Positions 43,656-60,760 of a stretch of 60,987 nt of DNA are shown one piece after another. Source of the stretch: an uncultured Anaerolineae bacterium (lineage in GTDB: Bacteria; Chloroflexota; Anaerolineae; CAYYKQ01); the NCBI GenBank assembly GCA_964440965.1, contig CAYYKQ010000001.1, positions 1 through 60,987 on the forward strand, read 5' to 3'. Both the position numbers and the translations under genes were made by a program. Numbering within the stretch: position 1 is the stretch's first letter; each line of letters opens with the position of its first letter. The notes beneath the pieces are model-generated. The model was given only the letters and a program-made list of their open reading frames with translations, ran no database searches and had not been told where the DNA came from.

Positions 43656-43741
43656 GCAATGGGCTCGCCGCCCTCCTTTGGATTTCGGAAATCTCCAAAA
43701 TCTAAAGGGAACCGACGGATAGACTCAGGGGCTGTGACTGA

Positions 43742-43780
43742 GCGAGGGATCGGCCTCCGTCAGGGGTCTCGATCCCTCGC
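43742..43780 (+). other. Perfect 11-bp-stem hairpin between the nucleotidyltransferase gene and the giant gene
   Basis: gcgagggatcg-(17 nt)-cgatccctcgc. This argues that 43659-43793 is leader rather than coding sequence. Confidence 0.55.
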
Positions 43781-43793
43781 AGGGTACGATCGA

Positions 43794-46700
43794 ATGAAAA
43801 GCTGTGGAATCGATCTGAAGCAATGGGTTCCCCTGCTGATCCTGGGACTATTGGTTACTGCGGCGCTGCTTCCGGCCTTCGCCATGGATGGCGACCGCCC
43901 CACGGTGGTGAGCAGTTGGCTCACCATCACACCCTCAATTGACGGTGTGATTGCAGGTGGGGAATGGGAGGACGCCACATTTGTTGACATCAGCTCAGGC
44001 GGCAGGGAGGCCTACGCCTACTTTAAGAACGATGGAGATTGGCTCTACGTGGCCATTGATGCCGTGTTTGATGAGGCGTACGAGGGCGATCCTTACTCCT
44101 GGTGGGACGAGGTGAGGATCACCTTCGACGCGGGCAACGATGGCAATCTGCTGTCCGACTGGCTCGTCAAGTTTGGAGCCCCGGCGGCGAAGGGAGTGGC
44201 GGAGCTATTGTCACCATGGGGCATCTGTCATCACATGGTGGTGGAGAGCGGGTTAGGCGCCGTCAACGATGCGGCCGGGAATGTCCAATATGAACTGAAG
44301 ATACCCCTCCATGTGGATGAGCCTGGCCTAGAAGGCCCTCTGGTGGGCAACCCAGGGGAGTCGGCCGGCATGGTAATTGATGTGGCAGATCACTGTGCAT
44401 TTGGCGGGTGCCAGAATCGGCTGTTGTATCCTGCTGATGCACAGATACCGATGTACTACGAATTCGACTGCATAGATGGCCCGGATCCCATCGTCCAGAC
44501 CTGGGCTGTTTTGCAGGTAGGTTCGCCTGAATGTTGCCCATGCGAATTAACCACTCGGGACATAACCGCGGAATTAGGATACCCTAACCCTGCCCGCCAC
44601 ACAGACATCATTGTAAAATTCTCTGCTGCATGCAGCGATACCGTCTGCGGGTTGGTTGCTGGATGCTCGTATCCCTGGGTGCACATCAAAGGGTGTGGAA
44701 TACATGGTATTGACTATTACGTGCTGGCACACAATCCGGACCCATACTATGAATTATCGGGCTATGTTGGGGACTATGTCAGGCTGACCGGCGTTGTCAT
44801 CGAGGGCTATGGCATTCTGGGTGACCCTTTTATCAGCGGGTATGACTCCATTGAGCGGATCTCCAACTGTTCCGATTGCGAACGCGAGTATTGCGATCCA
44901 GCATCCTTTACCGTCTTGCTGCATGAGCCGCCTGATACCACAACAGACATAACGAGCGATTTCTACCGGTATACCAAAGGCATCTATAGAGCGACTGTGC
45001 TAGCTGGAGAGCCCGGAACAAAAACAATAGAGGTGAGCGCACCAGACTGCCCGGCAATTGAAAGGGAATTGCACCTGGTTGGCGGCACCGTCTGCGGACA
45101 GGTTGACTGGGGAATCGAGTGGGCATCCATCCAAGGCTGCGACGATGTTGTGTATTATGTAAGTACCGATGGATATGGACTGCACGATAGGCTCGAAGAT
45201 TACGATGGCGAGTGGGTATTACTAAGTTCAGTCGTCTTCGAGGGCTATGTTGATGCCAATACTCCCCTCATTTCTAATTGCGACGACATCCTAGAAATCT
45301 CTGATTGTTCAGAGTGTTACAGCGATAAATTCATTGATGATTGCACAGAGATAGACTCTCCAGGGTACTATAAACTAACCTATGACATACACGAGAGCGC
45401 AGCCCAGGAATGCATAAAGATAACAGCCAGCGATGTGACCTTTGATGGCAATGGCCACTACATAAGCGCTGCTGAGATCATAGATGGGCTTGAGGACAGG
45501 TGTGCTATCTGCGTCGGTGGCTCGGGCACACTGAGCAATGTTATCGTTAAAAACGTCAGTATTCCGGGAGATTGGGATATCGGCATACGCTTTTCCGGGG
45601 TCGAAAATGGCAGAATAGAGGGTAACAGCCTTTGGAGGAACAAGGACTACGGAATCCTCCTCATCAATTCCAGCGGCATCGCCGTCGTGAACAATGACCT
45701 TGGTTACAACCTGGACGGGATCTTCCTCATGGACTCCGATGGCAACACGATCACCGACAACACCGCTCAGGGCCACTACAGCGGGATTGGACTGGTCCGA
45801 TCGAGCGGCAACGAACTCTTAAACAACACCGCTTCGATGAATTACCTGGGGGTAGACCTCTATCAGGAGTCTAACAACAACCTGATTTTAAGCAACACCG
45901 TAGAACTTAACCTCAACCAGGGTTTATATATCGGCAGCGATTGTACAGGCAACACGATAAGCCAGAATTTTGTCTGCTCCAACGATCAGTCAAGCCAGGG
46001 CTACGCTGATATTCATGCTGAGGTTCTGGATGTAAATTCTGGCACCGAAAACACCTGTGATAACACCTATAACTGGGATGACATCGGCACTACCGGATGC
46101 ACACATTGGTGTGATGACTGGGACAAGGACGGGATAAGTGACAGTGAGGACAACTGCCCGTATGATCCTAATCCGGATCAAAGCGATATGGATGGAGATG
46201 GGATAGGTGATGTCTGTGACTCCGATAAGGACGGCGATGGGGTTCCCAACGAGGACGATAATTGCCCTGAGGTTCCCAATCCAGGTCAAGGTGATATGGA
46301 CGGAGATGGAGTAGGGGATGTCTGCGACCCCGATAAGGATGGTGACGGGGTCCCTAACGAGGATGACAATTGCCCTGAGGTTAGCAATCCGGATCAGAGC
46401 GATCAAGACGGAGATGGGATAGGGGATGCCTGCGAACTTGAGCTGATAGGTCTGGAGGTAACCCAAGGCATCCAGAACCTAAGAAACAGCGTTACGCTGA
46501 TCGAAGGCAAACCCACTTATGTGCGTGCTTACGTCCGGAGCAATTCGGGCACGGTGCAGTATGTGACAGCCCATCTGATCGGCAGGCGCAACGGCGCTCC
46601 ACTTCCGGGCTCACCACTGAGCCCCGACAATATTGGGATGAGCGTTCATGTAAAACAAAACCCCAAGCGCGCCCAACTGAACGACAGTTTCTATTTCCGG

Positions 46701-49481
46701 CTGCCCGACGGGTGGATAAGTGGAACGATCGAGTTAGAGTTCGAGGGTATCAGCCATGACTTCGACTGCAGGGAGCCGGCCGAACAGGGCGGAACTGCCA
46801 ATGACTGCAAGGTTGAGGTGACGTTCACCCAGTCCCCTGAGCTTCAGATCAAGTTTCTTCTGTATTCATGGATTGACCTTGATCTCAATAAACACTATCC
46901 TAACAGCAATGATCTGGCTGAATTAGCCAAGGAAATCATGTCCATCTTCCCCATTCCCAAACTAGATTTCGAGATAGGCGTTGGAAGCACTTGGATTGGT
47001 ACCGGTCCACCAAGCACAGACTCTGACTTTAAGCAGATAAACCTGAGCACAAGTACGATACGCGCGACCGACGGTTGTTTCACAACATGGCCTGTGAACT
47101 GTAAACGGTACTATCTGACTGTGCTGGTTGACCCGCCAAAAGAAGGCACTATGGGAACAGCTACAATTGGTTCCGAGGTAGCTGTGGCCTATGTGGATGT
47201 TAACCGCACACCATCTCACGAACTCGGTCACTGTGCCGGTCGCAAACATACGAAGTGTAAAGGTGATGAAGACGATCCGGACGACAACTATCCGTATTAT
47301 CCGGGCGGTAGAATCAACCCCCCGTCTCGTTGGTTTTATTCACAATGGGATGAAGAAACCTTCTTTGGCTTCGATATCTACACAAAGGCAATCTATCACG
47401 AAACTACCGGCGATTTGATGAGCTACTGTGACCCTAGATGGCCTTCGGACTACACGTACGAGGGTATTCGCGAGCATCTGGCGGATCATTTCGGAGCGGC
47501 CTCTCTTTCCTCTCCCTCGTTGGTCCTGATGGCTGAGGAACCCGCCATTCTGGTCAGCGGTGTCGTCACCCCCGCCACAAGCAGTGGCAGGATAGCGTCG
47601 GTGCTTAATATCGAGTCCCCGGCTCCTGTCCCCGCTCCAGAGCCTGGCCCGTACGTGATCCGCTTTGAAGATGGTCTGGGGAATGAGCTGGCCTCGTACA
47701 GCTTTGAGCCTGACTTTATGGTGGCGTTTTGCAGACAGTGTGCCGATGACAGCGAGAACCGGATTGGGACCTTCGTATTGCTCCTGCCATGGGACTCGCG
47801 TACCGCCCGCATTGTGTTGTTACATAACGGGCAAGAATTGGATTCCCGCCTTGCATCGGCTCACGCGCCTACGGTGACGGTGCTGTACCCCAATGGTGGA
47901 GAGTTCCTGAGCGGCTCCACCGCAACACTCGGTTGGACTGCCCATGATCCGGACGGCGAGCCGCTGGAGTATCTGGTCCAGTACAGCACCGATGGCGGAG
48001 CAAGCTGGCAGACCCTGGTGACGAATTGGACTTCGACCACCTATGAGCTTAACTTGGGCATGATAGCCGGTACCGACCAGGGATTGCTGCGCGTATTGGC
48101 CAGCGATGGATTCCACACCGCCCAGGACCAGTCTGATGGAACGTTCAGCGTTGCCAAGCATCCCCCTCAGGCAAACATCTGGTCTCCAGAAGACAACACG
48201 CTGTACGTAGGCAATCAAACCATTACCTTGGAAGGCTATGCATATGACAATGAAGACGGGTTGCTAAGCGATGTGGCACTGAGTTGGAGTTCCAACCTAG
48301 ATGGCATTCTGGGCACAGGAAGCTCTCTAGCAGTCGTCGCCTCTACGCTAACGGAAGGCATCCACATCATCACTCTCATGGCACAAGATAGCGATGGACA
48401 AGTTGGTACAGACACTGTCACTGTCCAAGTCTACAGAGAAAGGCCCACATTGCCCCCCAACCTAGCAGTCGCGCCTATGACATTACTCTTCACCGCTGTG
48501 GAAGGCGGCGGACAAACTGCCGAGCAGGTTATCTCGATTCGAAACAGCGGTGACGGCCAACTGATGTGGTCGGCGGTCGTTGATCGGTCCTGGATTCTGG
48601 CAAGCCCCTTGGAAGGCACCGCTCCAAGCGAAATCTCTGTCGCCGTAGACCCAACAGGCCTGCCAGCCGGGGAATATACCGGTAAAATCACTATCACAGC
48701 TCCAGGAGCCGCCAACAGTCCGCAAACTGTTCGGATTGCACTATACGTTCAAAAACAGTACACCATCTACCTCCCCCTCATCCTGAAAAACTACCGCCCC
48801 GGCCCCCAGCCACCTATCACTCCCACACCCACCCCGACGCCTCCGACCAGGTCTTTTCCCGCTCCTGCAGGCACGCAACCAAACGGCTTGGCATGGGATG
48901 GGAGCCATCTGTGGATGTCCTCCTACATGGCGAACGGGGGGATATACATGTTGGAGCCATCGGACGGTTCGGTATTGAAGATGTGCACGCCCCCAACGGC
49001 TCAATATGGAGGGTACGGTGGCCTGGCATTCGATGGAACCTACCTCTGGCAGGCCGATTCCTACGGCGGAGGGATCTACAAGCTGAACACTGCTGACTGC
49101 TCCGTGGTCTCCACCATTCCAAGCCCCGACATGTACCTTAATGACCTGGCATGGGATGGCAATTATCTCTGGGTGTGCGGATATACGTCGGGAAAGCTGT
49201 ATAAACTGGAACCCAGCGACGGCTCAATAGTGGCCGAATTCGACATCCAAGGGGAAGGCCTCACATACGATGGGACTTATCTGTGGCTGTCCCAGGGCAG
49301 CAGGATCCTCAAAATCAACCCCTTAAATGGACGGGTGATCTCCTCTATGCAGACCCCATTTTCGCGCCCTGAGAGCCTGGCATGGGATGGCGAATACCTA
49401 TGGGTTGCCTCCTTTGATGAGGCGATGATTTATCGCATCGACGTCGGGACCTTGACGTCCTCGCCCGCTTTAGAGCGCTAA
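43794..49481 (+). CDS. Giant mosaic secreted/surface protein
   Basis: - Signal: [30 protein letters not shown].
- Internally duplicated Cys-rich module.
- PbH1-type beta-helix repeats (about 45.45-46.0 kb).
- Three TSP3-type units [34 protein letters not shown] (46.12-46.44 kb).
- Zincin motif [12 protein letters not shown] (47217).
- BNR motif STDGGASW.
- [10 protein letters not shown] followed by a PT linker.
- LAWDGxYLW propeller, glutaminyl-cyclase-like.
- An alternative start at 43659 is possible. Confidence 0.8.
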
Positions 49482-49563
49482 GTTAACGGCGAAGTTACCG
49501 CCGAGAATCCTGAAGGCTACCCTCGCTCCATTGAGCTGGGGGAATCGGTCAGAGGAAAAGGCC

Positions 49564-50964
49564 ATGAAAACGACCCTGATCTATGCCGGCATCGCCGGCT
49601 ACGGCTTTAAAAGCCTGGGAAAGGGGATGGAGGCGGGGTGGATAAGCCACGGCCTAGCCCATCTCTCCAGCGCCGCCAAGGCCCGAGGCTTTGAGGTCGA
49701 CCTCATCGATCTGAGGGGGCTGGAGAGCTGGGAACACTTCCGCCAGGTGCTCGCTGAGCGCGACCCCCACGTGGTGGGCCTCACCATGATGAGCGTGGAC
49801 TACAGCCCCGTCATGAAGTGCGTGGACATCGTTAAGGAGCTCAACCCCCGCATCCTCACCGTCGTCGGTGGGCCGCACCCCACCCTGATGGTGGATGAGG
49901 TGGCCCAAAACCCCAACATCGATTACATCGTCACCGGCGAGGGGGAGATAACCTTCCCAAAGCTGCTTGAGGCTATCGAGCGGGGTGATCCTCCTAAGGA
50001 GAAGGTGCTCGTCGGTGAGAGGCCCGTCCTGGACGAGCTTCCCTTTCCCGACCGCGACCTCTTCCTGGAGGAGTGGCGCAAGTGGGGTTACGATCTGGAC
50101 TCGCCAGAGGTGCCTTTCGTTCCCGAACTCCCGCCCCCCTTCCTGACCATTATCGCCGCCAGAGGCTGCAAGTACAACTGCAGATTCTGCCAGCCAGCCG
50201 AGCGCATCCTCTTCGGCCGGAAGGTGCGCTCCCGCAGCCCCGGCAACGTCATCGAGGAGTTGAAATTGCTGCGCGACAAATACCATTTCGCCAGCTTCAT
50301 GTTCCACGACGATTGCCTCACCGAGGACAGGAAATGGGTGAAGGAATTCTGTCGGCTCTATAAGGAGGAGGGCTTCACCCAACCCTTCGCCTGCCAATCG
50401 CGAGCGGATATCATCGTCCGCCATGAGGATATGGTGGAGCTCATGGCCGACACCGGATGCAAGCTCTATTTCATCGGCTTCGAATCGGGCAACGACAGGG
50501 TGCTGAGGTTCTTACGCAAAGGAACCACGCGGGAGATAAACCTGAAAGCTGCCCGAATCTGCAAAAAGTATGGCATCTCCATCTGGGCCAATTATATGCT
50601 GGGCATTCCCACCGAGACGAAAGAGGAGGTGATGGATACCATCTCCATGCTCAAGGAGATAGACCCCGACTACTACAGCCCGGCCTTCTACACCCCCCAT
50701 CCGGGAAGCGACCTTTACGAGTATTGCATGGAACACGACCTCTCGCTCATCAAGGATCACGCCAGCTATCGGCGCAACCCTACGGAGCCGAAGATCAAGG
50801 GAGTGGACTATGAGTTTCTGATGTGGGCGCTCGAGGAGTCGCGGCGCCGCAAGCCTTGGAACGCCTTCAAGCGCTGGACGCGCCGCAACTGGGAGCGCTA
50901 CGCCAACCCACGGAAAGCCTGGCGGAAGGCGAAGAGGTTAGCAGGTTTTGGAGTGCAAAAATAG
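49564..50964 (+). CDS. B12-binding-domain radical SAM protein
   Basis: N-terminal B12-binding-like Rossmann region, and the CxxxCxxC cluster RGCKYNCRFCQ. ATG 49564 is preferred over the tracked TTG 49531. Confidence 0.85.
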   Translation: MKTTLIYAGIAGYGFKSLGKGMEAGWISHGLAHLSSAAKARGFEVDLIDLRGLESWEHFRQVLAERDPHVVGLTMMSVDYSPVMKCVDIVKELNPRILTVVGGPHPTLMVDEVAQNPNIDYIVTGEGEITFPKLLEAIERGDPPKEKVLVGERPVLDELPFPDRDLFLEEWRKWGYDLDSPEVPFVPELPPPFLTIIAARGCKYNCRFCQPAERILFGRKVRSRSPGNVIEELKLLRDKYHFASFMFHDDCLTEDRKWVKEFCRLYKEEGFTQPFACQSRADIIVRHEDMVELMADTGCKLYFIGFESGNDRVLRFLRKGTTREINLKAARICKKYGISIWANYMLGIPTETKEEVMDTISMLKEIDPDYYSPAFYTPHPGSDLYEYCMEHDLSLIKDHASYRRNPTEPKIKGVDYEFLMWALEESRRRKPWNAFKRWTRRNWERYANPRKAWRKAKRLAGFGVQK

Positions 50965-50992: not shown

Positions 50993-53900
50993 ATGAACAT
51001 CTCTAAGATCTGCCGTCTCTCGGAAGAGGTGAAGACTGGAGAGCTTTTGGAGGCAGTCTTCATTGATCAGGCCATCAAAAACCCCGATTCCAAAGAGGCG
51101 GATAGGGAATTCGTCTTGCAGGCTACCTATCCTACTTATCCTTTACGGGCTTTGGTGGAGCATATAGCCCAGAAGCTGAGCGGGATACACCCTAAAGGCG
51201 CGGTGGTTGTTCGCGGCGACTACGGAAGCGGCAAATCTCACGCCCTTTTGGCCCTTTATCACCTGGCCTCAGCAGGAGAAGAAGCGGGGAGATGGCTGGA
51301 GCGGTGGAAAATCAGCGCCCGCTTCCCTCACACCAAAGCAGCCCTAGTGCAATTGGTCGCCGAGCAGCCGGAGACGCTTTGGGAACTCCTCTTCGAGCGG
51401 GCTGGCAGGCCGGAGCTGAACCAGGAGGTGCGCAGCTATCCCACCAGGGAGCAATGGGCCGCCCTCGCCTCCGAGGCCCCCGCGCTGCTCATCATTGACG
51501 AGCTGGAGCTCTGGTTCGGCCAGTTGGCCAACGGCCTCCCGAAGGAGCGCACTAAGGCCGCCTTGCAAAACCTCCTGGAGGCCGCGAACCTGCCCGATGT
51601 CCCGCTTGCGGTGGCCATCTCCGTCTACGGGCGCGACCTTGCCCTTATGGGCATCATTAACCGAACCCAGCCTCCATCGTGGGATGTGGGGACGGCGGAG
51701 GATCGCGACAAAATCGTGCGCCATCGCCTGGTGGAGGCCATAGACGAAGGGAAAGCCAATGCAGTTATCGCCCGTTATACCAAAGCCTACCAGGAAGCCC
51801 AATCCGAACTGCCCCTCATCTCCTCCCGCCTGGCCGACCTCCAAAGGGAAATGCTGGAGACCTATCCCTTCCATCCATCCTTCCTTAGGCAGGCTTTCCA
51901 GGTCTACGCGGCAGCGCCCCACCATGAGAGCACCAGGGGAATCATCTTCCTGGGAGCCACTTTGCTCCGTCGCTACGCCCGCCAACGGGATCTGCTCCTC
52001 ACCGGCGATCTGGACATAACGGACGAAAGCGTGGCCAGCGACCTGCGCAAGCTGGACCCGGACCTGGTAGCCAATGCTCACGAAGATCTGGCTCGGAGGT
52101 GCCAGGGCCTTGACCACGCCAGCGGGATCGTTGGCACCATCCTCCTGCACTCTTTCTCCCCCTACGAGGCCGCCGGTGCTACCAGGGAGGATGTGTTGGT
52201 GGGCAACTTCCGCCCCACCCTCAACATCACTGACCTTCAGAGCCAGATTGACGCCGTCTTCCAGGAAGCCTGGTTCATTGATGAGATAGAGGAGAGGTTC
52301 GTCGTCACCAAAGAGGTGGTCCTGCTCAAGAGGATCGAGCAGCAGGCCCGCGCCCTCCTGGAGACCCCAGAGGGCAGGCAGCGGGCCGCCGAGCGCATCA
52401 TGGAGACCCTGCGGGAATTCATGGCCCCGGAAATGGTCTTTCTGTATCCTGAGGACCCCTTACCCGAGGCCCTGGCGGGGAAGGGCTTGAGGTATGTGGT
52501 CTCTTTGAAACCCCTCTCGGAGGAAGATGCCCTGGAGATGCTTCAGGGGCGAGGAAACACCGTTATCTTGATCGCTCCTAAACTCTCGGTGCGAGGCCGC
52601 CTCACCCATGATAGGGAGATGCTCCTTCGGGCTGCGCGGGTGCTGGTGTGCGAGGATCTGCTGGGACGGGGCACCAAGCGCCAAAGCGATGTGCGCCGAC
52701 ACAAGGGGCGCTTCGAGCGCGAATTTAAACAGGCGCTCAGGGAAAGCTACGGGCGCTGGATGCGCATCAGCCGCACCAACGAGCTGGGCGAGGAGCCCGA
52801 GTACGTAGTGCGAGCCATAGGATGTGCCCTTGCCCCTGATGCCATCAAAGGGGCCATCCTCCGGGAAAACGATGTGGAGGTAGTCAAGGGCGGGATAGGG
52901 AAGGTGCTGCGCTACTACGGACGGAGCGCGCCTAAGGGGTCCGAACAAGCCGGGCCAACCTTCGGTCAACTGCGGGAGGAGCTTCGCCGCCACACGGGGT
53001 TACCTATCCTCTTGCAGCCGGAGGACCAATTGGCCGAGGCTCTCCGAAGTATGATACGAGACGAGCATCCCGGCACCGGCGCCATTGTCTCAGTGGGACG
53101 TGCCCTCTATGGCTACGATGCCCGCCCCTTGCCTTCCCTGACCGACGACTCCCGGGTGTGGTTACGAGCCTATGCTCCTGAACCCCCTGCTCCTCAGGAT
53201 GTGAAGCACGCTGTACGACAAGCCTTGGCGGAGTCGGCAACAGAGGGCAGGGCGGTGCAGAGCATTAAGGGCGAGGTGACCTACCATCTAGGGGTCTCCT
53301 CCCGAGATGTCCTGCGAGCCCTGGCGGAGTTGGTCAACGAAATGAATGCGGTGTTGGAGCAGGGCGAGAAGCGCTTCCCGGATGACGGGCACCTATCCAG
53401 CGAGGCTATCGCCGACAATGCCGAGGTCTGGCTCTCCCCTTACGCTCCGCCCGATGACCGGCAGGCACGCGAACGCATCGTGCACCTGGTCACGGCAGCG
53501 GAGCCGGACGGCATCACTTTGGGCGAACTCAAGACCCACCTGAGCCTGGAGGGAATCGAAGAGGCGGCGATCGAACGAGGGGTAAAGCAGCTCCTTCTGC
53601 GCCGTGAAGTGGCGGCTCTGATGGGGGAGCCCGAGGCCCCCACTCTCATCCACGACCCATCATTGCTCACCGACGAGGTGCTTATCAGGCTCCCTGTAGT
53701 GGGGCCACCCCCGCCCCTGCCACCGGAATGGGAACCTTTCTCCCTTTCCCTCGGCCCTTACCGGCTGCTCGACCAATTCCTGCGCGACCTGGAGGCCCGG
53801 TTGCCTGAAGAGGTTCGCATCCGGTCTGCGACCTTCCAAGTTGTCCCCACTGAGGATACGCCAGATCCCATCTTCGGCCGGGACGAAGAACTGGCAGAGT

Positions 53901-54067
53901 TAGCGGAAGTAACGACGCAGCACCAGCTAATTTGCACCCTTGCGCACCCCTCCAGCAAGGCGACTTTCCTCAGCGTCAGCCGGCGGTTAGTGGAGCGCCT
54001 GGAACAGGTGGGTAAAGTGTTATTAAGCGTCGAAGTGTCTGGCGAGGTGCCAAGACATGGCCGTTGA
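50993..54067 (+). CDS. DUF499 / BrxC(PglY)-like P-loop ATPase
   Basis: Walker A VVVRGDYGSGKSHALLALYHL and Walker B ALLIIDELELW, followed by a long helical C-terminal region. SD ggagga precedes ATG 50993. The stop overlaps the next start by 11 nt. Confidence 0.7.
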   Translation: MNISKICRLSEEVKTGELLEAVFIDQAIKNPDSKEADREFVLQATYPTYPLRALVEHIAQKLSGIHPKGAVVVRGDYGSGKSHALLALYHLASAGEEAGRWLERWKISARFPHTKAALVQLVAEQPETLWELLFERAGRPELNQEVRSYPTREQWAALASEAPALLIIDELELWFGQLANGLPKERTKAALQNLLEAANLPDVPLAVAISVYGRDLALMGIINRTQPPSWDVGTAEDRDKIVRHRLVEAIDEGKANAVIARYTKAYQEAQSELPLISSRLADLQREMLETYPFHPSFLRQAFQVYAAAPHHESTRGIIFLGATLLRRYARQRDLLLTGDLDITDESVASDLRKLDPDLVANAHEDLARRCQGLDHASGIVGTILLHSFSPYEAAGATREDVLVGNFRPTLNITDLQSQIDAVFQEAWFIDEIEERFVVTKEVVLLKRIEQQARALLETPEGRQRAAERIMETLREFMAPEMVFLYPEDPLPEALAGKGLRYVVSLKPLSEEDALEMLQGRGNTVILIAPKLSVRGRLTHDREMLLRAARVLVCEDLLGRGTKRQSDVRRHKGRFEREFKQALRESYGRWMRISRTNELGEEPEYVVRAIGCALAPDAIKGAILRENDVEVVKGGIGKVLRYYGRSAPKGSEQAGPTFGQLREELRRHTGLPILLQPEDQLAEALRSMIRDEHPGTGAIVSVGRALYGYDARPLPSLTDDSRVWLRAYAPEPPAPQDVKHAVRQALAESATEGRAVQSIKGEVTYHLGVSSRDVLRALAELVNEMNAVLEQGEKRFPDDGHLSSEAIADNAEVWLSPYAPPDDRQARERIVHLVTAAEPDGITLGELKTHLSLEGIEEAAIERGVKQLLLRREVAALMGEPEAPTLIHDPSLLTDEVLIRLPVVGPPPPLPPEWEPFSLSLGPYRLLDQFLRDLEARLPEEVRIRSATFQVVPTEDTPDPIFGRDEELAELAEVTTQHQLICTLAHPSSKATFLSVSRRLVERLEQVGKVLLSVEVSGEVPRHGR

Positions 54068-55031
54068 CGAGCATTTCATCCAAGAGCTCATCGAAGGAGA
54101 GGATCCGCTCGCCGTCATCTGGCAACAGATGCGGCGAATTTACGCCGTCGAGGATTTCCCCCCTGACCTGAGGGCCTTCATGGACGAGAGGGAGGAGCAG
54201 CTCAACGGGCTGGAACAGGCCGTGTACGATGGCTTCTTCGAGGCCTACGACCAGCTATTGGAAGCTGCCCAGGCCCAGGATGCAGGCTATGTGCTCTCCC
54301 TTTTCGATCGCTGCCCCTTGGTGGTCATCGCCGATTCGCTGAGTGTGCGGGAGGCGGCGCTCCTAGAGAGGCGCTGGGCTGGCGGGGGGTGGGAGGCACA
54401 GATGGAGGGGTTCGCCGTCGTCCCCTTCCCTCCCACAACCGAGAGCCTGAGCCGCCTGCTTCTGGGCACCCAGGGCCCAGCGCTGGGGCGCAACAGACCG
54501 GGATTCGATTACTGCTACGTGGCCGGGCCAGAGCACATCCCCCACATGCCTTCGGCAGGCCCGCTTCTCGTCTGGATGCGCCTGCCGGATACGGCGCTGG
54601 AGGAGGTGACCCTGGCCCAGACCCATACCGTTGCCGATGCCTTTGACCTGACCGTCGAGACCTTGGAGCGCGTGCTGGCGGCTGGGCGGGAGGAAGCCTT
54701 GCTCACCAGCGACCACGGCTACCTTTACGCCCGCTCCCCGGCCCACTACTGGCGGATGCCCCTAAAAGTCGAAGAAGTAGCCCGTTCCACCTTTCCCCGG
54801 GCTAGCCGCTTTCAGGAGGCCGGACACGAACGAGCGCGAGGGCTGAGAAATCACGAGTCGCCCCGGAGGGAACAGCGCTTCTTCGCCTTCACACGGACCC
54901 ACGTGGCCGTGCGGGGCCGCTACTGGTGGGGCACGGCCAGCCCCAACGAAAGATGCACCGCCCACGGAGGGCTGTCCTTCGTGGAGTGTTTGGTGCCGAT
55001 TTTGAGGCTGAGTAGGAGAACCTCCGGATGA
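54057..55031 (+). CDS. Short PglZ-like alkaline-phosphatase-superfamily protein (324 aa)
   Basis: The motif order is that of the PglZ domain: VVIADSLSVRE, then LLTSDHGYLY, then AHGGLSFVECLVPIL. Both ends overlap the neighbouring genes. Confidence 0.55.
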   Translation: MAVDEHFIQELIEGEDPLAVIWQQMRRIYAVEDFPPDLRAFMDEREEQLNGLEQAVYDGFFEAYDQLLEAAQAQDAGYVLSLFDRCPLVVIADSLSVREAALLERRWAGGGWEAQMEGFAVVPFPPTTESLSRLLLGTQGPALGRNRPGFDYCYVAGPEHIPHMPSAGPLLVWMRLPDTALEEVTLAQTHTVADAFDLTVETLERVLAAGREEALLTSDHGYLYARSPAHYWRMPLKVEEVARSTFPRASRFQEAGHERARGLRNHESPRREQRFFAFTRTHVAVRGRYWWGTASPNERCTAHGGLSFVECLVPILRLSRRTSG

Positions 55032-56653
55032 TTGCCGAGGAACTTTTTGAGCTGATTGCCCAAGGCGAGGGCCAGCGGCTTGAATTCAAACGGGGCATCC
55101 CCTCGATCAAGAATTTAGCCTCCACGGTCATTTGCTTCGCCAACGCGGAAGGCGGAAAGATTCTCCTAGGCGTGGATAAGCAGGGGCAAATCGTAGGCTG
55201 TTCTCAATACAACATCCCCGATCTAGTCTCTGGCGTCTATCGAAGCACTGAGCCTCCTATCACCATTGAAATCGAAGAAGTCGCCACCCCTCAAGGGATG
55301 GTCTTAGCAATCCATGTGCCCCGCAGCCCGTTAATTCATGCCACCACTGGAGGCGTCTATCGGAAACGCGTGGGACGTGAGTGTCTACCCCTTTCCCCTC
55401 AGGAGGTCATCGCTCAGCAAGCCGAGCGAGCTACCCTTGACTACAGTGCCCGCTCCCTGGATCAAGCAAGTTATCCCGAGAATGTTGAAACAAGAGCGCT
55501 GGAAGCGATCCGGACGGAAATCGGGCGGCGTAATCCAGCTCTGGCAGCCTATTCGGATTTGGAGCTTCTTCGGAATTTAGGATTGATAAGGAACAACTCT
55601 CTCACCGTCGCCGCCTTGCTGCTCCTGGGGAAATCAGACAGCATTCGCCAGTATCTCCCTCAAGCAGAGGTGTCCTACCTGCGTCAGAAGGGGGAGACAG
55701 AAATCAGCCTTTCCGAGCATTTATACTTACCCCTACCTCTCCTGCTCCAAAGGTTGGAGGAACTCATCGAAGCTGCCAATGAGATGCGCTCCATTCAGTA
55801 CGGCCTTTTGCGCATTGACATCCCCGATTTTCCCAAGCGGGTTTATCGGGAGGCGATTCTTAATGCTGTGAGTCATCGTAATTATGCCCTGCCCGGCAAT
55901 GTGGTCATCCGTCACTTCCCCGACCGTTTAGAGGTGAGTAGCCCTGGGGGATTTCCAACAGGGGTTTCGGTAGCGAATATCCTGCGCCAAATCGTCCCTC
56001 GCAATCGGCTCTTGGCCGATGCCCTGCATCGGATAGGATATGTAGAAAGAGCGGGCATCGGGGTGGATATGATGTTCGAGGAATTGTTGCGCCTGGGTAA
56101 GGAACCCCCGGAGTTCGATGCCCAAGCTCATAGCGTGCGAGTGATTATCCGCAATGCCTCCTTCGATGAGCGATTTGTTAGCTTCGTGGAGGACACCTTG
56201 CGCAGCGGCAAATCCCTTCCCCTTGACTACCTGCTTGTGCTCGCTCATCTGAAGCGCCATCTGGAACTCGACCGCTCAACGGCTGTGGCACTCTTACAGC
56301 GCAGCGACCGGGAGGCAAGCGAAATCCTATCAAGCATGGTGAGGGAGGGCTTCTTGGAGAAACGAGGTGTCAAAAAAGGAGCCGTCTATCACCTTACGAC
56401 AAAAGTCGCCGAAAAATTGGGTCTGCCAAGCAAGAAGGAGCTGATCGAAGCGATCCGCCACGAAGAGATGGTGCTGAGGTATGTGAGGGAAAAAGGCAGC
56501 ATCGGCAATGCGGAATGCCGAGAACTGTGCGGACTCGCCTTAAAACAAGCCTCATACTTGCTGTCCCGAATGGCTAAGTCAGGAAAGCTAATGCCAGTTG
56601 GCGAAAAACGGTGGCGACGCTATGTTCTGCCCACGTCAAAACAGCACGATTAG
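55028..56653 (+). CDS. Schlafen/AlbA_2-domain protein with HATPase_c_4-like and C-terminal winged-helix regions (COG2865-type)
   Basis: N-terminus EGQRLEFKRGIPSIKNLASTVICFANAEGGKILLGVDKQGQIVG. Middle REAILNAVSHRNY...PRNRLLADALHRIGYVERAGIGV. ATGA overlap with the upstream stop. Confidence 0.72.
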   Translation: MIAEELFELIAQGEGQRLEFKRGIPSIKNLASTVICFANAEGGKILLGVDKQGQIVGCSQYNIPDLVSGVYRSTEPPITIEIEEVATPQGMVLAIHVPRSPLIHATTGGVYRKRVGRECLPLSPQEVIAQQAERATLDYSARSLDQASYPENVETRALEAIRTEIGRRNPALAAYSDLELLRNLGLIRNNSLTVAALLLLGKSDSIRQYLPQAEVSYLRQKGETEISLSEHLYLPLPLLLQRLEELIEAANEMRSIQYGLLRIDIPDFPKRVYREAILNAVSHRNYALPGNVVIRHFPDRLEVSSPGGFPTGVSVANILRQIVPRNRLLADALHRIGYVERAGIGVDMMFEELLRLGKEPPEFDAQAHSVRVIIRNASFDERFVSFVEDTLRSGKSLPLDYLLVLAHLKRHLELDRSTAVALLQRSDREASEILSSMVREGFLEKRGVKKGAVYHLTTKVAEKLGLPSKKELIEAIRHEEMVLRYVREKGSIGNAECRELCGLALKQASYLLSRMAKSGKLMPVGEKRWRRYVLPTSKQHD

Positions 56654-56659
56654 CGCAAG

Positions 56660-56722
56660 CTATTGCAAAGTGGGAATAGACTATTGCAAAGTGGGAATAG
56701 GCTATTGCGAAATTGAAATGAC
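56660..56722 (+). promoter_or_regulatory. Three tandem 21-bp repeats immediately upstream of the methyltransferase gene
   Basis: ctattgcaaagtgggaataga / ctattgcaaagtgggaatagg / ctattgcgaaattgaaatgac. Each unit contains a -35-like ttgcaa or ttgcga. Confidence 0.75.
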
Positions 56723-56751
56723 TTTTGGCTCATAAATCGAGAGGTATCATT

Positions 56752-59343
56752 GTGATCTATTATATCGAGCACGATTTCCCCATCGAAAAGCTCAACCCCC
56801 TGGCCCAGCGGGAGGCCAACGCCAAGCGACCCATCGCCATGCTCCACAAGTGGTGGGCCAGGCGGCTGGGCTGCGTCTTCCGTACCATCATCCTGGCCAG
56901 TCTCATCCCCGCCCAGGAATGGAAACGGCTGGACGAGGAGGTGCGCAGGGCGGGCCTCGATGCCTGGACGGCCCTCTATTACCGGGAACACCCCAAGGCC
57001 AAGGCCCTCATCGAGCGTTACCTTAAGGACAAAATCGTCCTCGACCCCTTCATGGGCGGGGGAACCACCATCGTGGAGGCGCTCCGCTTAGGATGCAAGG
57101 TCATCGGGGTGGACGTGAACCCCGTGGCCTGGTTCATCACCAAGAAGTCCATCGAGCCAGTGGACTTGGACAAACTGGACGCCGCCTTCGAGCGCCTGAG
57201 GGAGGAGGTGGCTCCCGAAATCCTTCACTTCTACCGCACCCGCTGTCCCCATGGCGACCACGAGGCCGATGTGATGTACGTCTTCTGGGTGAAGCAGGTG
57301 CGCTGCACAAGCTGCGGGCGGAAGACGAGGCTCTTCAACTCCTTCCGCCTGGCGACGAGGAAGGGCAAAGATGTAGTCTTCTGCCCCCGCTGCTACTGGG
57401 TGGGCGAGGTGGAAGAGGGGACGCCGCGCGTGGTCTGCCCCGACTGCGGGCACGAGTTCGCGCCCCGTAAGGGCTACTCCGGGCGGGGGAAATTCCGCTG
57501 CGAGCACTGCGGCCACATGGACAGGCTGGTGGACTGGGTGCGGCGCACGGGCCAGGCTCCCGAATACGAGATGTTCGCCATCGAGTATTGGTGCCCCACC
57601 TGCAAGGTGCGGGGCTACAAAGGCGCCGACGAGTTTGACCGGGACCTCTACCGCCAGGCCTGCCTGGAGTTCGAGCGGGAGAAGGCCAAGCTGCCCCTGC
57701 CGGAAGGCGAAATCCCCGCCGAAGGGCGCAGCGACCCCCGCCCCATCAGCTTCGGCATGCGCCACTGGACAGACCTCTTCAACCCCCGCCAGCTTCTGTG
57801 TCTGGGGAGGCTTCTAGCGGCCATTTTGGAGATAGAGGACAAAGCCGTACGGGAGCTGATGGTGGTGACGCTGTCGGATGCAGCTGATACTAACAATACG
57901 CTTTGCACTTATTTGGCACCCCGTTCGGAAGTAGAGCGAATGTTTGGGCGACATGCCTACTGGCCCTCTGACCAATTTGTAGAGAACAACGTTTGGGGTA
58001 CCAAGTTTGGCCGAGGCACATTTTCGGCAGTTTTTAACAAAACTCGCCGTGCTCTAACTTGGGCACTCCACCCCAGCGAAAGGGCTTATAACAGTCGTGA
58101 CAGAGTACCTACTGATGACACCGCTTGCGCTTGGGTTAGCAACAATATTGATGAAGTCACCAACGGCTCAGAACGGGCTTTTCTTTCTGCTCGCAGTGCC
58201 GAGGACCTCTCTTACATCCTATCCAAATCCGTAGATGCGGTTATCACCGACCCACCGTATTACTCAAATGTTCAATACGCGGAACTCTCAGACTTCTTCT
58301 ATGTCTGGCTACGGGCTGCGCTTGCCGGCACGTACTCAGAATTCAATGCGCCCATTGTCCCTAAAGAAACGGAAATCGTGGTCAATGTTAAGGCAGGCAA
58401 GACAGATGAGCATTTCCGTCAAGGATTGCTACGCTGCTTCAAAGAGTGTCATCGTGTGCTCAAAGATGAAGGATTAATGGCTTTCACCTTCCATCACGAG
58501 AAGGCCAAGGCCTGGGGTGCTGTTTTGGAGGCCGTGCTAGAAGCCGGTTTTGACATAGAGGCAGTATGGACTTACCACTCGGAAAAAACCGGCGGAGCAC
58601 ATGGAGCTGGCATTCGCTTCGACACCATCATCGTCTGCCGGAAGCGGCTGGAGGAGGCGGAGCCGGCGGCGTGGGGGGAGCTGAGGGACAAGATCGTGCT
58701 GGCCGTGAGGGAGGAGCTGAGGCGGCTGCTGGAGAACGGAGCGGCACTATCCACCGAGGACGTCTTCGTCATCACCATGGGCAAGGCCCTCTCCATCTAC
58801 TCCCGCCACTGGCCCAAGGTGCTCCACGACGGCCAGGAGGTCAGGCTCACCCAGGCCATCGAGGACATCGAGTCCCTGGTGGACGAGCAAATTGACGCCT
58901 ACTTCGGCATGGTCACCCCTCCCTGGCTGGACGTGCTATCCCGGGTCTACCTCCAGCACCTGGCCCGCAGGAAGGCGGTGACCAAGGACACACTGGTCAA
59001 AGCCTGCCGCACCAGGGGGTTGGACTTCGCCGAGCTGGAGGGGGCAAACTACATCAAAAGGGCGAAGAAGGCCGGCCTCTACGAGGTCCTCTCCCCCCAG
59101 AAGCGCCTGAGGTGGCTGGAGGAGAGGCTGGAGGAGGGCGAGGACCTCTCGCCCATAGACCGCGCCCATTACCTCTACGCCCTCTACAATGCACGTAGGC
59201 CCCTGCGGGGCGAAATTCCCAGGGTTTACACCAGGGGGCTGGAGGAGGTCTGCGATGCCCTGTATCGCATCACAAGGGATAGGGCCTACGAGGTCATCGG
59301 CGGGCAGATAAAGCGAGTGAAGGAGCAGATGGCGTTGATGTAA
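56752..59343 (+). CDS. DUF1156 zinc-ribbon N6-adenine DNA methyltransferase (COG1743-type, PglXI-like)
   Basis: N-terminus FPIEKLNPLAQREANAKRPIAMLHKWWARRLG. Motif I LDPFMGGGTT. Five CxxC pairs. Motif IV AVITDPPYYSNVQY. GTG 56752 has the SD gagagg. The tracked start TTG 56725 is an alternative. Confidence 0.8.
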   Translation: MIYYIEHDFPIEKLNPLAQREANAKRPIAMLHKWWARRLGCVFRTIILASLIPAQEWKRLDEEVRRAGLDAWTALYYREHPKAKALIERYLKDKIVLDPFMGGGTTIVEALRLGCKVIGVDVNPVAWFITKKSIEPVDLDKLDAAFERLREEVAPEILHFYRTRCPHGDHEADVMYVFWVKQVRCTSCGRKTRLFNSFRLATRKGKDVVFCPRCYWVGEVEEGTPRVVCPDCGHEFAPRKGYSGRGKFRCEHCGHMDRLVDWVRRTGQAPEYEMFAIEYWCPTCKVRGYKGADEFDRDLYRQACLEFEREKAKLPLPEGEIPAEGRSDPRPISFGMRHWTDLFNPRQLLCLGRLLAAILEIEDKAVRELMVVTLSDAADTNNTLCTYLAPRSEVERMFGRHAYWPSDQFVENNVWGTKFGRGTFSAVFNKTRRALTWALHPSERAYNSRDRVPTDDTACAWVSNNIDEVTNGSERAFLSARSAEDLSYILSKSVDAVITDPPYYSNVQYAELSDFFYVWLRAALAGTYSEFNAPIVPKETEIVVNVKAGKTDEHFRQGLLRCFKECHRVLKDEGLMAFTFHHEKAKAWGAVLEAVLEAGFDIEAVWTYHSEKTGGAHGAGIRFDTIIVCRKRLEEAEPAAWGELRDKIVLAVREELRRLLENGAALSTEDVFVITMGKALSIYSRHWPKVLHDGQEVRLTQAIEDIESLVDEQIDAYFGMVTPPWLDVLSRVYLQHLARRKAVTKDTLVKACRTRGLDFAELEGANYIKRAKKAGLYEVLSPQKRLRWLEERLEEGEDLSPIDRAHYLYALYNARRPLRGEIPRVYTRGLEEVCDALYRITRDRAYEVIGGQIKRVKEQMALM

Positions 59344-59425
59344 TTTTTGAGTGCACAAGCTCTGCAAAAAGCTTGAAAGATTTAACGCTCGCTACCGAAG
59401 TGGGCGGCAATAGGAGGTAAGGTAT

Positions 59426-59656
59426 ATGGCCTTGGAAATTGCTCCCAGAATTGTGGTTGACCCGACCGTCCGTTTTGGCAAACCGGTCATCAAAGGCACG
59501 CGGGTGCCCGTGGATTTGATCGTGGCAAAGCTGGCCGGGGGGATGAAGATTGAAGAGGTGGCCAAGGAATACGATATCACGGCAGAGGACATATATGCTG
59601 CCCTCGCTTATGCGGCTAAACTAATAGCCAGCGAAGAGATAAGGGCGGTGGTATGA
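59426..59656 (+). CDS. DUF433-family putative antitoxin (second copy)
   Basis: FGKPVIKGTRVPVDLIVAKLAGGMKIEEVAKEY. Overlaps the toxin start by 4 nt. Confidence 0.75.
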   Translation: MALEIAPRIVVDPTVRFGKPVIKGTRVPVDLIVAKLAGGMKIEEVAKEYDITAEDIYAALAYAAKLIASEEIRAVV

Positions 59657-60018
59657 AATGGCGATTCCTGGTTGATGAAGATATGCCCCGCTCTACAGCG
59701 GCAATGCTCCGCGAGGCAGGACACTATGCGGAGGACGTCAGAGATGTTGGGCTTCGCGGTTGTAGCGACCAGGAGGTCTTTGATTACGCCCAATCCCAGG
59801 GAGCTATCTTAGTAACCGCTGATAAAGGCTTTGCTAACGTGCTACGATTCCCTCTTGGAAGCCATTCCGGCATTATCGTAGTCCGAGTGCCTGGTGTATT
59901 GCCAACGAAAGCGGTAAATGGAGAGCTACTGCGGGTTTTAACCGAATTAGAAGGGCAGAAGTTAGAAGGCGCGCTGATCATCGTAGAAGTAGGCCGCATC
60001 CGCATCAGGCGTCCATAG
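59653..60018 (+). CDS. DUF5615-family PIN-like putative toxin (second copy)
   Basis: MKWRFLVDEDMPRSTAAMLREAGH...ILVTADKGFANVL. Confidence 0.7.
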   Translation: MKWRFLVDEDMPRSTAAMLREAGHYAEDVRDVGLRGCSDQEVFDYAQSQGAILVTADKGFANVLRFPLGSHSGIIVVRVPGVLPTKAVNGELLRVLTELEGQKLEGALIIVEVGRIRIRRP

Positions 60019-60137
60019 TTGTTTTAGAGGGTGTCTGAAGAAGCCAAAGCCTACTGCCTCTCCCAAGTTCGTGAGGAGGCTGAGGGAAGCGCGGGATTTT
60101 AGGGCGGTTGGAGAAACAAGGGGTGCTGATGTGACAA

Positions 60138-60170
60138 AGACCTCCGAGGTTTCCGAAACCTCGGAAGTCT
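60138..60170 (+). other. 15-bp-stem hairpin (one mismatch) directly upstream of the SD of the 60182 ORF
   Basis: agacctccgaggttt-ccg-aaacctcggaagtct. Its right-arm 12-mer recurs at 60604-60615. Confidence 0.6.
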
Positions 60171-60181
60171 GAGGAGGTCAA

Positions 60182-60598
60182 ATGGCCTTAGCGCCCGGCT
60201 TCTACATCATTGAGAAGAGCCAACTGGGGAAGGACATCCCCAGGCCTAAGGAGACGATGAGCATCATCGCCTTCCTGAGAGCAGTGCGGAGAAGGGAAGA
60301 GCTTCCCAAAGAGGTCTGCGTCATCGGGCTGGAGAGGCTCCTCTACCGCGCCGCCGACAGGCGCAAGGCCGCCAGGGTCATCCAGCAAGCCCTTTACAAC
60401 CCTCAGGCCGTGCACCACCTGCGACGCCAGGCGCTGGTGGTGGTCTTGCCCCTCGAATACCTGGACCTCTCTCTTCATTGGAAAGCGGGCATCAGGCGAG
60501 GCAGAATAGCAGAGGAAGTCTTCGCCGTGGAGTGGGTCTTCCCCCGCGCGGACATCAGAGCCGTGGGGGAAACGGACGTGTGCTACAGCATGTTCTAA
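60182..60598 (+). CDS. Hypothetical protein (138 aa)
   Basis: SD gaggagg precedes the ATG. No family recognised. A comparably long antisense ORF exists, so coding status is uncertain. Confidence 0.35.
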   Translation: MALAPGFYIIEKSQLGKDIPRPKETMSIIAFLRAVRRREELPKEVCVIGLERLLYRAADRRKAARVIQQALYNPQAVHHLRRQALVVVLPLEYLDLSLHWKAGIRRGRIAEEVFAVEWVFPRADIRAVGETDVCYSMF

Positions 60599-60637: not shown

Positions 60638-60760
60638 ATGCGCAACATCTTGGTCACCGGCGGGGCCGGGTTCATTGGCCCCAACTTTTGCGACGCCGAG
60701 GCGGTGGAGCGCACGACCCGGGAGCACAGGATAGGCGCCATTTTAGACTCCGAAGTATGA
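60638..60760 (+). pseudogene. Truncated N-terminus of an NAD-dependent sugar epimerase/dehydratase (RmlB-like)
   Basis: MRNILVTGGAGFIGPNF is the canonical Rossmann start with SD ggggagga. The sequence then becomes unrelated and stops after 40 codons. Confidence 0.5.

Follow-up and report, generated by a model that had tools for sequence, protein, structure and literature searches.

A DUF499-centred locus without helicase, probably of the Type-3 BREX-Related family and a candidate phage defence system, in an uncultured Anaerolineae bacterium

The contig CAYYKQ010000001.1 of an uncultured Anaerolineae bacterium (60,987 bp, the whole of which is the window analysed here) carries near its end a candidate defence system at positions 50993-60598, including an inserted toxin-antitoxin (TA) pair. 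Its four core genes encode a DUF499-type ATPase, a standalone PglZ protein, a DUF1156 DNA methyltransferase (MTase) and a small iSTAND-like protein. We conclude, with a probability of roughly 75%, that the locus belongs to the DUF499-centred Type-3 BREX-Related (BR) family as a member without helicase, with this four-gene core, and is a BREX-like candidate for phage defence. An earlier note, made from the DNA letters without database searches, had drawn the system as the ATPase, PglZ and MTase genes plus a Schlafen-type gene, and had taken it for a possible new architecture. The gene lengths, motifs, both gene overlaps and five CxxC pairs listed there were all reproduced from the map of open reading frames (ORFs) and their translations, and public gene calls agree on the products of 1024, 324 and 863 amino acids (aa).

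As a kind, the architecture is already published. DUF499-centred BR systems were defined in a computational description by Rakesh and Krishnan (NAR, January 2026; PMC12839542), and the Type-3 BR system is restated in PMC13326643. Its parts are a DUF499 ATPase, a DUF1156 N6-MTase (in a subset with two 4C zinc fingers), a nuclease-less Swi2/Snf2 helicase, a standalone active PglZ (569 taxa) and an iSTAND gene (82% of taxa) (PMC12839542). The window carries four of these five genes, the Swi2/Snf2 helicase being the missing one. Since the gene set had been published, the claim of a new architecture does not hold, and only the consistent lack of the helicase sets the window lineage apart. Outside the locus lists of the published Data S1, no description of a helicase-less form of Type-3 BR was found in the literature.

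To place the window in its family, 99 related loci (L-numbers below) were gathered from genomes, metagenomes, one viral contig and plasmids. By tblastn with the window proteins, the ATPase, short PglZ and MTase were found together in 43 loci, at identities down to about 23%. The ATPase and PglZ genes overlap or abut in nearly all loci, and the position of the MTase gene varies, upstream or downstream of this pair. The nearest relative, L005, shows 85-90% identity to the window. A survey of the exact four-gene order had been proposed in the earlier note; it bore out the ATPase, PglZ and MTase trio, whereas the Schlafen gene was not co-conserved.

The related loci fall into three groups. Group A, to which the window belongs, has an ATPase of about 1010-1045 aa, and group B, of Dehalococcoidia, one of about 860 aa. 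Group C has an ATPase of about 880 aa, a larger MTase and a small gene of its own (c4), followed by a protein of about 945 aa that is a Swi2/Snf2 helicase by Pfam and matches the PADLOC profiles BrxHI/II (2e-104) and HmaA (5e-97). Because a c4 member resembles the published Type-3 BR iSTAND Representative_2 (58% identity, 2e-47), group C was identified as the published Type-3 BR system. The helicase was present in all nine group-C loci with the full trio and in none of the 34 trio-bearing loci of groups A and B, among which both flanks reach 3 kb or more in ten rows (seven distinct loci). A tblastn search with 13 Swi2/Snf2 helicases found no match in the 61-kb contig, the rest of the genome lying outside this search. 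BrxA, BrxL, BrxHI/HII, PglW and BrxP were likewise missing from the ORFs of 49.5-61 kb and from the recurrent neighbours. The absence of helicase and Lon noted earlier was upheld. A replacement helicase was also considered for the helicase-less loci and rejected, the large neighbours there being Hsp70, a Piwi-like protein, a surface protein, a serine recombinase and GmrSD.

A neighbour-joining tree of 47 ATPases placed the loci with helicase in one clan and those without it (groups A and B and the haloarchaea) in the complementary clan. The latter includes Chloroflexota, Armatimonadota, Poribacteria, Methylomirabilota (NC10) and haloarchaeal plasmids. The helicase-less lineage is a deep clan that crosses the domains Bacteria and Archaea. 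Two of the plasmids, pKBTZ03_58 of Halobacterium salinarum and pMBLA003601 of Haloplanus rallus, carry the order DUF499, PglZ, MTase and small gene without helicase, and their small genes match the hidden Markov model (HMM) of the window's small-gene family (c2) at 3e-19 and 8e-8, respectively.

Purifying selection acts on all four core genes. In comparisons with orthologues of 62-94% identity, the ratio of nonsynonymous to synonymous substitution rates (dN/dS) was 0.12-0.17 for the ATPase, 0.14-0.23 for PglZ, 0.08-0.21 for the MTase and 0.10-0.16 for the iSTAND gene. As these values are low and all catalytic motifs are intact, the locus was judged not to be a decaying remnant.

The 1024-aa protein, from its sequence relationships, is a DUF499-like ATPase and not of the BrxC/PglY type. 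It carries GDYGSGKSH at residue 75 (Walker A, GSGKSH) and LLIIDELE at 165 (Walker B, IIDELE), and the Walker residues G75-H83 and D169/E170 do not vary among 15 homologues of diverse origin in Bacteria and Archaea. PADLOC profiles matched it as HmaC (6.5e-18) and DUF499 (4.8e-16); the NCBIfam profile DUF499_antiphage gave 6.5e-27, at 94 bits versus a cut-off of 1200, and Pfam DUF499 gave 21.8 bits, under the 23-bit cut-off. RefSeq entries named "DUF499 domain-containing protein" on haloarchaeal plasmids share 24-26% identity with it (E 1e-29 to 2e-54), and it is also homologous to the group-C ATPases. Since all DUF499 scores lie under the curated cut-offs, the protein is a divergent member; so qualified, the DUF499-like assignment made earlier is supported by PADLOC, NCBIfam and the RefSeq homologues. 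No PADLOC BrxC match was obtained for the window ATPase at E<=0.01, and the family profile misses the solved BrxC.

The ATPase and PglZ genes are translationally coupled by an 11-nucleotide (nt) overlap. The 324-aa PglZ carries ADSLSVRE at 92, TSDHGY at 217 and HGGLSFVECLVPIL at 303, and in an alignment of 34 members the residues D93, S96, R98, E99, T128, D178, D219, H220 and H303 are invariant. Because of the spacing of these residues and the HMM alignment to BREX PglZ, the pattern likely fits the bimetal site of NPP and alkaline-phosphatase enzymes, with T128 as nucleophile. The short form is a family in itself: a word-indexed search gave 90 clusters of 300-340 aa, many of them tagged PF08665, and an exhaustive search gave 422 representative clusters, the top 150 being all of 365 aa or less. 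The window protein matched the PADLOC PglZ profile at 3.9e-5, and its family profile matched the BREX PglZ chains 9zn5_B (5e-6) and 9nv3_C as well as PorX. An AlphaFold2 model (predicted local distance difference test, pLDDT, 92.7) was compared with PDB by Foldseek, and the best match was PorX (7e-10), followed by BREX PglZ 9zn5_B (2.6e-7) and then by NPP enzymes. The PglZ proteins matched in PADLOC and PDB have 750-880 aa and align through their C-terminal catalytic part only. The matches of both family profile and model to BREX PglZ and PorX make the assignment to the PglZ branch of alkaline-phosphatase enzymes sound, and together with PADLOC they support the earlier reading of a BREX-related system with PglZ. 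PglZ is predicted to act as a metal-dependent phosphodiesterase or nuclease effector.

The assignment of the 863-aa protein as a DUF1156, PglXI-like MTase was confirmed with Pfam, PADLOC and NCBIfam. It carries LHKWWARRLG at 31, DPFMGGGTT (motif I) at 98 and TDPPYY (motif IV) at 499, and the five CxxC pairs, at 185, 211, 229, 250 and 281, form a target-recognition insert nested between motifs I and IV. The Pfam matches were N6_N4_Mtase (8.6e-17) and DUF1156 (37.9 bits, over the 24-bit cut-off), the PADLOC matches HmaB (7e-47), DUF1156_MTase (2e-33) and PglXI (1e-30), and NCBIfam DUF1156_antiphage gave 158 bits versus a cut-off of 1000. Just upstream of the MTase start stands a possible operator, a tandem repeat of the 21-nt unit CTATTGCAAAGTGGGAATAGA in 2.3 copies (96% match) with a further third copy that is degenerate. 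No such repeat could be recognised in L005, whose gap is partly masked by an N-run. In the complete genome of the cultivated strain Ca. Fervidibacter sacchari PD1 (NZ_CP130454; L014 1233-3943), the MTase is read as two consecutive ORFs of 445 and 447 aa in different frames, and split MTase ORFs were also seen in L022 and L073; a frameshift, a pseudogene or phase variation could account for them.

The fourth core gene had been overlooked in the earlier note, in which the system ended with the MTase. By clustering of all neighbouring ORFs, a small gene of about 125-190 aa was found to recur next to the MTase or ATPase gene, and the HMM of its c2 family detected it in 51 loci and in the window. 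The small gene of the window, at 60182-60598, is 69% identical (1e-59) to the gene after the MTase in L020 and L022. Its family aligns with the c4 family of group C by hhalign (96.7% probability, E 4e-10), through which the small protein appears homologous to the published iSTAND (BrxB/BrxF-like) component. The gene has no match in Pfam (DUF3780 included) or in PADLOC profiles, and no mention of DUF8076, the family with which it is tagged, was found in the literature. Its AlphaFold2 model reached a pLDDT of 92.4. The TA pair, said to follow the system directly, does adjoin the MTase gene; it lies inside the system, however, the iSTAND gene being found beyond it. As the TA pair is wedged here between two genes that are adjacent in close relatives, the system was taken to span the whole region from the ATPase to the iSTAND gene. 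The truncated housekeeping gene read downstream is indeed present, as an epimerase fragment (Table 1).

Table 1. Features at the candidate defence system of the window and at its borders
Feature	Position	Strand	Remark
B12-binding radical SAM enzyme	49531..50964	+	Pfam and NCBIfam matches; 28-nt gap to ATPase; outside the system
DUF499-type AAA+/STAND ATPase, 1024 aa	50993..54067	+	ATG start behind GGAGG; putative BrxC-like scaffold or sensor
Standalone PglZ, 324 aa	54057..55031	+	N-terminal helical region of about 85 aa and alkaline-phosphatase/NPP-type core
Schlafen/AlbA_2, HATPase_c_4 and C-terminal winged helix-turn-helix (wHTH)-like protein, 541 aa	55028..56653	+	Putative accessory "backup" effector cassette, not core
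21-nt tandem repeat CTATTGCAAAGTGGGAATAGA	56660..56708	.	Within the 98-nt gap (56654-56751) before the MTase
DUF1156 N6-adenine DNA methyltransferase, 863 aa, PglXI/BrxXI-like	56752..59343	+	GTG start
DUF433 antitoxin (76 aa) and DUF5615/PIN-like toxin (121 aa)	59426..60018	+	TA cassette inserted in the operon
iSTAND-like small protein, 138 aa, tagged PF26277/DUF8076	60182..60598	+	BrxB/BrxF-like fourth core gene
Truncated NAD-dependent epimerase/dehydratase N-terminus, 40 codons, MRNILVTGGAGFIG...	60638..60760	+	Read from sequence; downstream island boundary

The window was then compared with the known systems. It shares with Type-3 BR the DUF499 ATPase, the DUF1156 MTase with a zinc-finger target-recognition domain nested in it, the intact standalone PglZ, the iSTAND gene and the closely paired ATPase and PglZ genes; accessories of Schlafen type also occur in that family. 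Apart from the helicase, it differs in its iSTAND protein, a divergent c2/DUF8076 subfamily found in neither of the two published representative alignments, and in the length of the ATPase, about 1020 aa in the window versus about 880 aa in Type-3 BR. The canonical BREX types 1-6 are defined by a multidomain PglZ, a BrxC/PglY-type ATPase and type-specific partners, none of which was found here; in this respect the earlier statement that the locus fits none of the six classical types stands. Type 3 BREX, as reportedly described by Goldfarb et al. in 2015, consists of BrxF, BrxC, PglXI, BrxHII, PglZ and BrxA. It resembles the window in its PglXI-like MTase, AAA+ ATPase, PglZ, BrxF-like iSTAND and methylation-based logic of self and non-self. 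Its PglZ of about 650-900 aa, however, adds an N-terminal inactive Swi2/Snf2 domain and C-terminal Ig-like domains to the catalytic domain, which stands bare in the 324-aa window protein, and the window ATPase is of DUF499 type and not BrxC/DUF6079, with neither BrxA nor BrxHII present.

The Hma and Type-1 and Type-2 BR systems, composed of the HmaA helicase-nuclease, HmaB methylase and HmaC DUF499 ATPase, gave the best PADLOC matches for the ATPase (HmaC) and MTase (HmaB). In contrast, the window has no helicase-nuclease (HmaA) and no DUF3780 (Type-2), and its presumed effector is PglZ where those systems have a PD-(D/E)XK or HKD nuclease. With Type I BREX the window shares a core of B, C, Z and X counterparts. 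In that system, BrxB binds PglZ, a nuclease that depends on metal (PMC12205998). BrxB:BrxC:PglZ assemble as a core complex, and methylation and restriction both require B, C, X and Z, BrxL being dispensable for methylation (PMC13326643). The window proteins are only remotely related to those of Type I BREX, the MTase belongs to another subfamily, and BrxA and BrxL are missing. A published alignment naming Fervidibacter and Anaerolineae was considered as evidence of the window clade and rejected, since it belongs to a different "capture" system. The other published Type-3 BR iSTAND alignment, Representative_1 (PMC12839542 Data S3), is a proteobacterial branch including Escherichia coli EFN9589256.1 and is neither c2- nor c4-like.

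We also examined the Schlafen/AlbA_2 protein, which the earlier note had regarded as an integral fourth subunit of a new BREX type. The 541-aa protein matched Pfam SLFN_AlbA_2 (2.9e-20) and HATPase_c_4 (1.3e-18), and among PDB entries 3lmm (2.6e-28), with a weak match to SLFN14. Its gene overlaps the PglZ stop by 4 nt (ATGA), as in a coupled operon gene, and wherever it is found, in the window, L005, L070 and L078, it stands directly after PglZ. These four, however, are all of about 100 loci that carry it; the gene is missing from more than 90% of related loci, close relatives at 65-70% identity among them, and the recurrent fourth component is the iSTAND protein. The GC content of the gene is 0.54 versus 0.59-0.63 in the flanks, and its synonymous divergence (dS) from L005 is 1.93, about six-fold that of the neighbouring core genes (about 0.33), which suggests an accessory cassette replaced by recombination or exchange. 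Proteins joining a Schlafen-type RNase, a minimal histidine kinase and wHTH are scattered as auxiliary effectors over at least 1017 BREX/BR taxa (PMC12839542), and the window protein, by its domains, is of this type. A new BREX type built on this protein is therefore very improbable.

For the assignment to Type-3 BR itself, several points weigh on the other side. The defining BrxHII-like Swi2/Snf2 helicase is found neither in the window nor anywhere in its clan. The ATPase scores far under the curated DUF499 cut-offs of Pfam and NCBIfam, and neither the single sequence nor a 15-member family profile found a PDB relative of it, BrxC included. The window PglZ itself has no Pfam match. The iSTAND fold was not confirmed by Foldseek, of which the KaiC/RecA P-loop matches were sub-significant, and the protein is therefore called iSTAND from its sequence-profile homology. 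The system is rare, being carried by 12 of 185,579 species genomes, and its carriers are nearly all uncultured. No experiments on any Type-3 BR system, with or without helicase, were found in the literature. One could suppose that the locus is a Type-3 BR system after loss of the helicase, serving for methylation only or restricting through unlinked or accessory effectors (Schlafen, GmrSD, pAgo-like). The published family does include the helicase, helicase-less loci often carry varied accessory nucleases (Schlafen, GmrSD, Piwi-like), and the B, C, X and Z proteins of Type I BREX suffice for methylation without BrxL (PMC13326643). Such a reading is nevertheless unlikely, because BREX PglZ nuclease serves defence and not methylation (PMC12205998) and the catalytic residues of PglZ are invariant in the clan, with dN/dS of about 0.2. 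Moreover, the clan is old and broad, in Bacteria and Archaea, most helicase-less loci have no accessory nuclease, and the importance of BrxL is variable even for restriction (PMC13326643). Still less probable is a role outside defence, in epigenetic regulation, repair or maintenance of plasmid or chromosome, with PglZ as phosphatase and not nuclease. The family is known from sequence alone, PglZ domains also occur in signalling (PorX being the best structural match), and housekeeping genes flank several loci; yet the distribution is patchy and rare, copies are found on plasmids and beside prophage, integrase, insertion sequence (IS) and TA genes, one copy is on an IMG/VR contig, and the components are common to the BREX and Hma defence systems.

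For the helicase-less Type-3 BR system a three-step mechanism is proposed, since its four core genes are counterparts of the Type I BREX B:C:Z:X set. By this analogy, the MTase would mark a host-specific motif, probably aided by the other three core proteins. The ATPase, iSTAND protein and PglZ would form a B:C:Z-type complex with ATP-regulated DNA binding, which would sense unmodified invading DNA. PglZ, as a metal-dependent phosphodiesterase, would then cleave the unmodified DNA as the nuclease effector, and phage defence would be the outcome. The Schlafen-type protein may be a swappable second-line effector, probably an RNase, and the DUF433/PIN pair may be a mobile TA cassette lodged inside the operon. 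That the helicase-less clan is a self-sufficient minimal B:C:Z:X system, with self-methylation and PglZ-dependent restriction in the absence of translocase, BrxA and BrxL, is put forward tentatively, at somewhat less than even odds.

Accessory genes are inserted at recurrent positions. The TA pair of the window (Pfam DUF433 9e-24, DUF5615 5.4e-24) is found in L005 with 97% and 85% aa identity, located there between the ATPase and PglZ genes (L005 9226-9776); between the two copies, dS is 1.53 for the PIN gene and 0.16 for the antitoxin. In seven group-C loci (L074, L075, L077, L080, L084, L086 and L090), the gap between PglZ and MTase holds a ribbon-helix-helix antitoxin and a PIN toxin (VapBC-like). 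In other loci this gap is occupied by the Schlafen gene, by an IS200 transposase (L020 and L021) or by genes without known identity, and it looks like an accessory "slot". In a Fervidibacter-like subgroup (L014 4492-6411; also L011, L038, L039 and L065), two inserted genes separate the MTase from the iSTAND gene, one for an OLD/ABC-type ATPase (PADLOC HEC-01A, 1.6e-45) and one for a DUF4276 protein (HEC-01B-like).

The neighbours of the related loci give a setting of defence islands, with prophage integrase, GmrSD, a Piwi-like protein, IS200, serine recombinase and TA pairs. Directly after the module in group B are a Piwi-domain (prokaryotic Argonaute, pAgo-like) protein in L053 (13028-15292) and GmrSD type IV restriction enzymes in L002 (13877-15583) and L045 (7355-9025), L002 lying also beside prophage integrase and capsid genes. 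On the haloarchaeal plasmids, a "PD-(D/E)XK nuclease family protein" is encoded a few kb downstream of the module (L098 13288-18675 and L099 17900-18864), followed in L098 by a UvrD-helicase protein; these genes may belong to a partner system linked to the module, or their proximity may be a coincidence. The sole IMG/VR relative is a complete group-C system, and a search of the phage collection gave no match. A degraded copy was seen at L048 9889-11146, with C-terminal ATPase and PglZ fragments, a DUF433 gene and an iSTAND fragment. Upstream of the window system, the radical SAM gene was considered as an operon member and rejected, because it adjoins the system only in the closest relative L005; its homologue is 7 kb off in L048 and absent from the loci of other relatives. 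Further upstream on the same strand, 43659-49481 encodes a secreted or surface protein of 1940 aa (beta-helix/NosD, thrombospondin type 3 repeats, BACON, Ig-like). Neither this protein nor the radical SAM enzyme is linked to the system in other loci.

As to how BREX blocks phages, recent work points to the BrxB:BrxC:PglZ core, with PglZ as the nuclease. Of the BREX components, the lineage described here has retained counterparts of B, C, Z and X only, its PglZ being cut to the catalytic domain, and is in this sense a natural minimal core. The locus also illustrates how TA and Schlafen cassettes lodge at fixed "slots" of such operons. Cultivated carriers are at hand, on the plasmid of Halobacterium salinarum KBTZ03 and in Ca. 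Fervidibacter sacchari PD1. If the four genes defend alone, the essential chemistry would be separated from the accessory translocases, the helicase and BrxL modules of BREX-like systems would be add-ons, and the lineage would provide the smallest tractable model for PglZ-based immunity.

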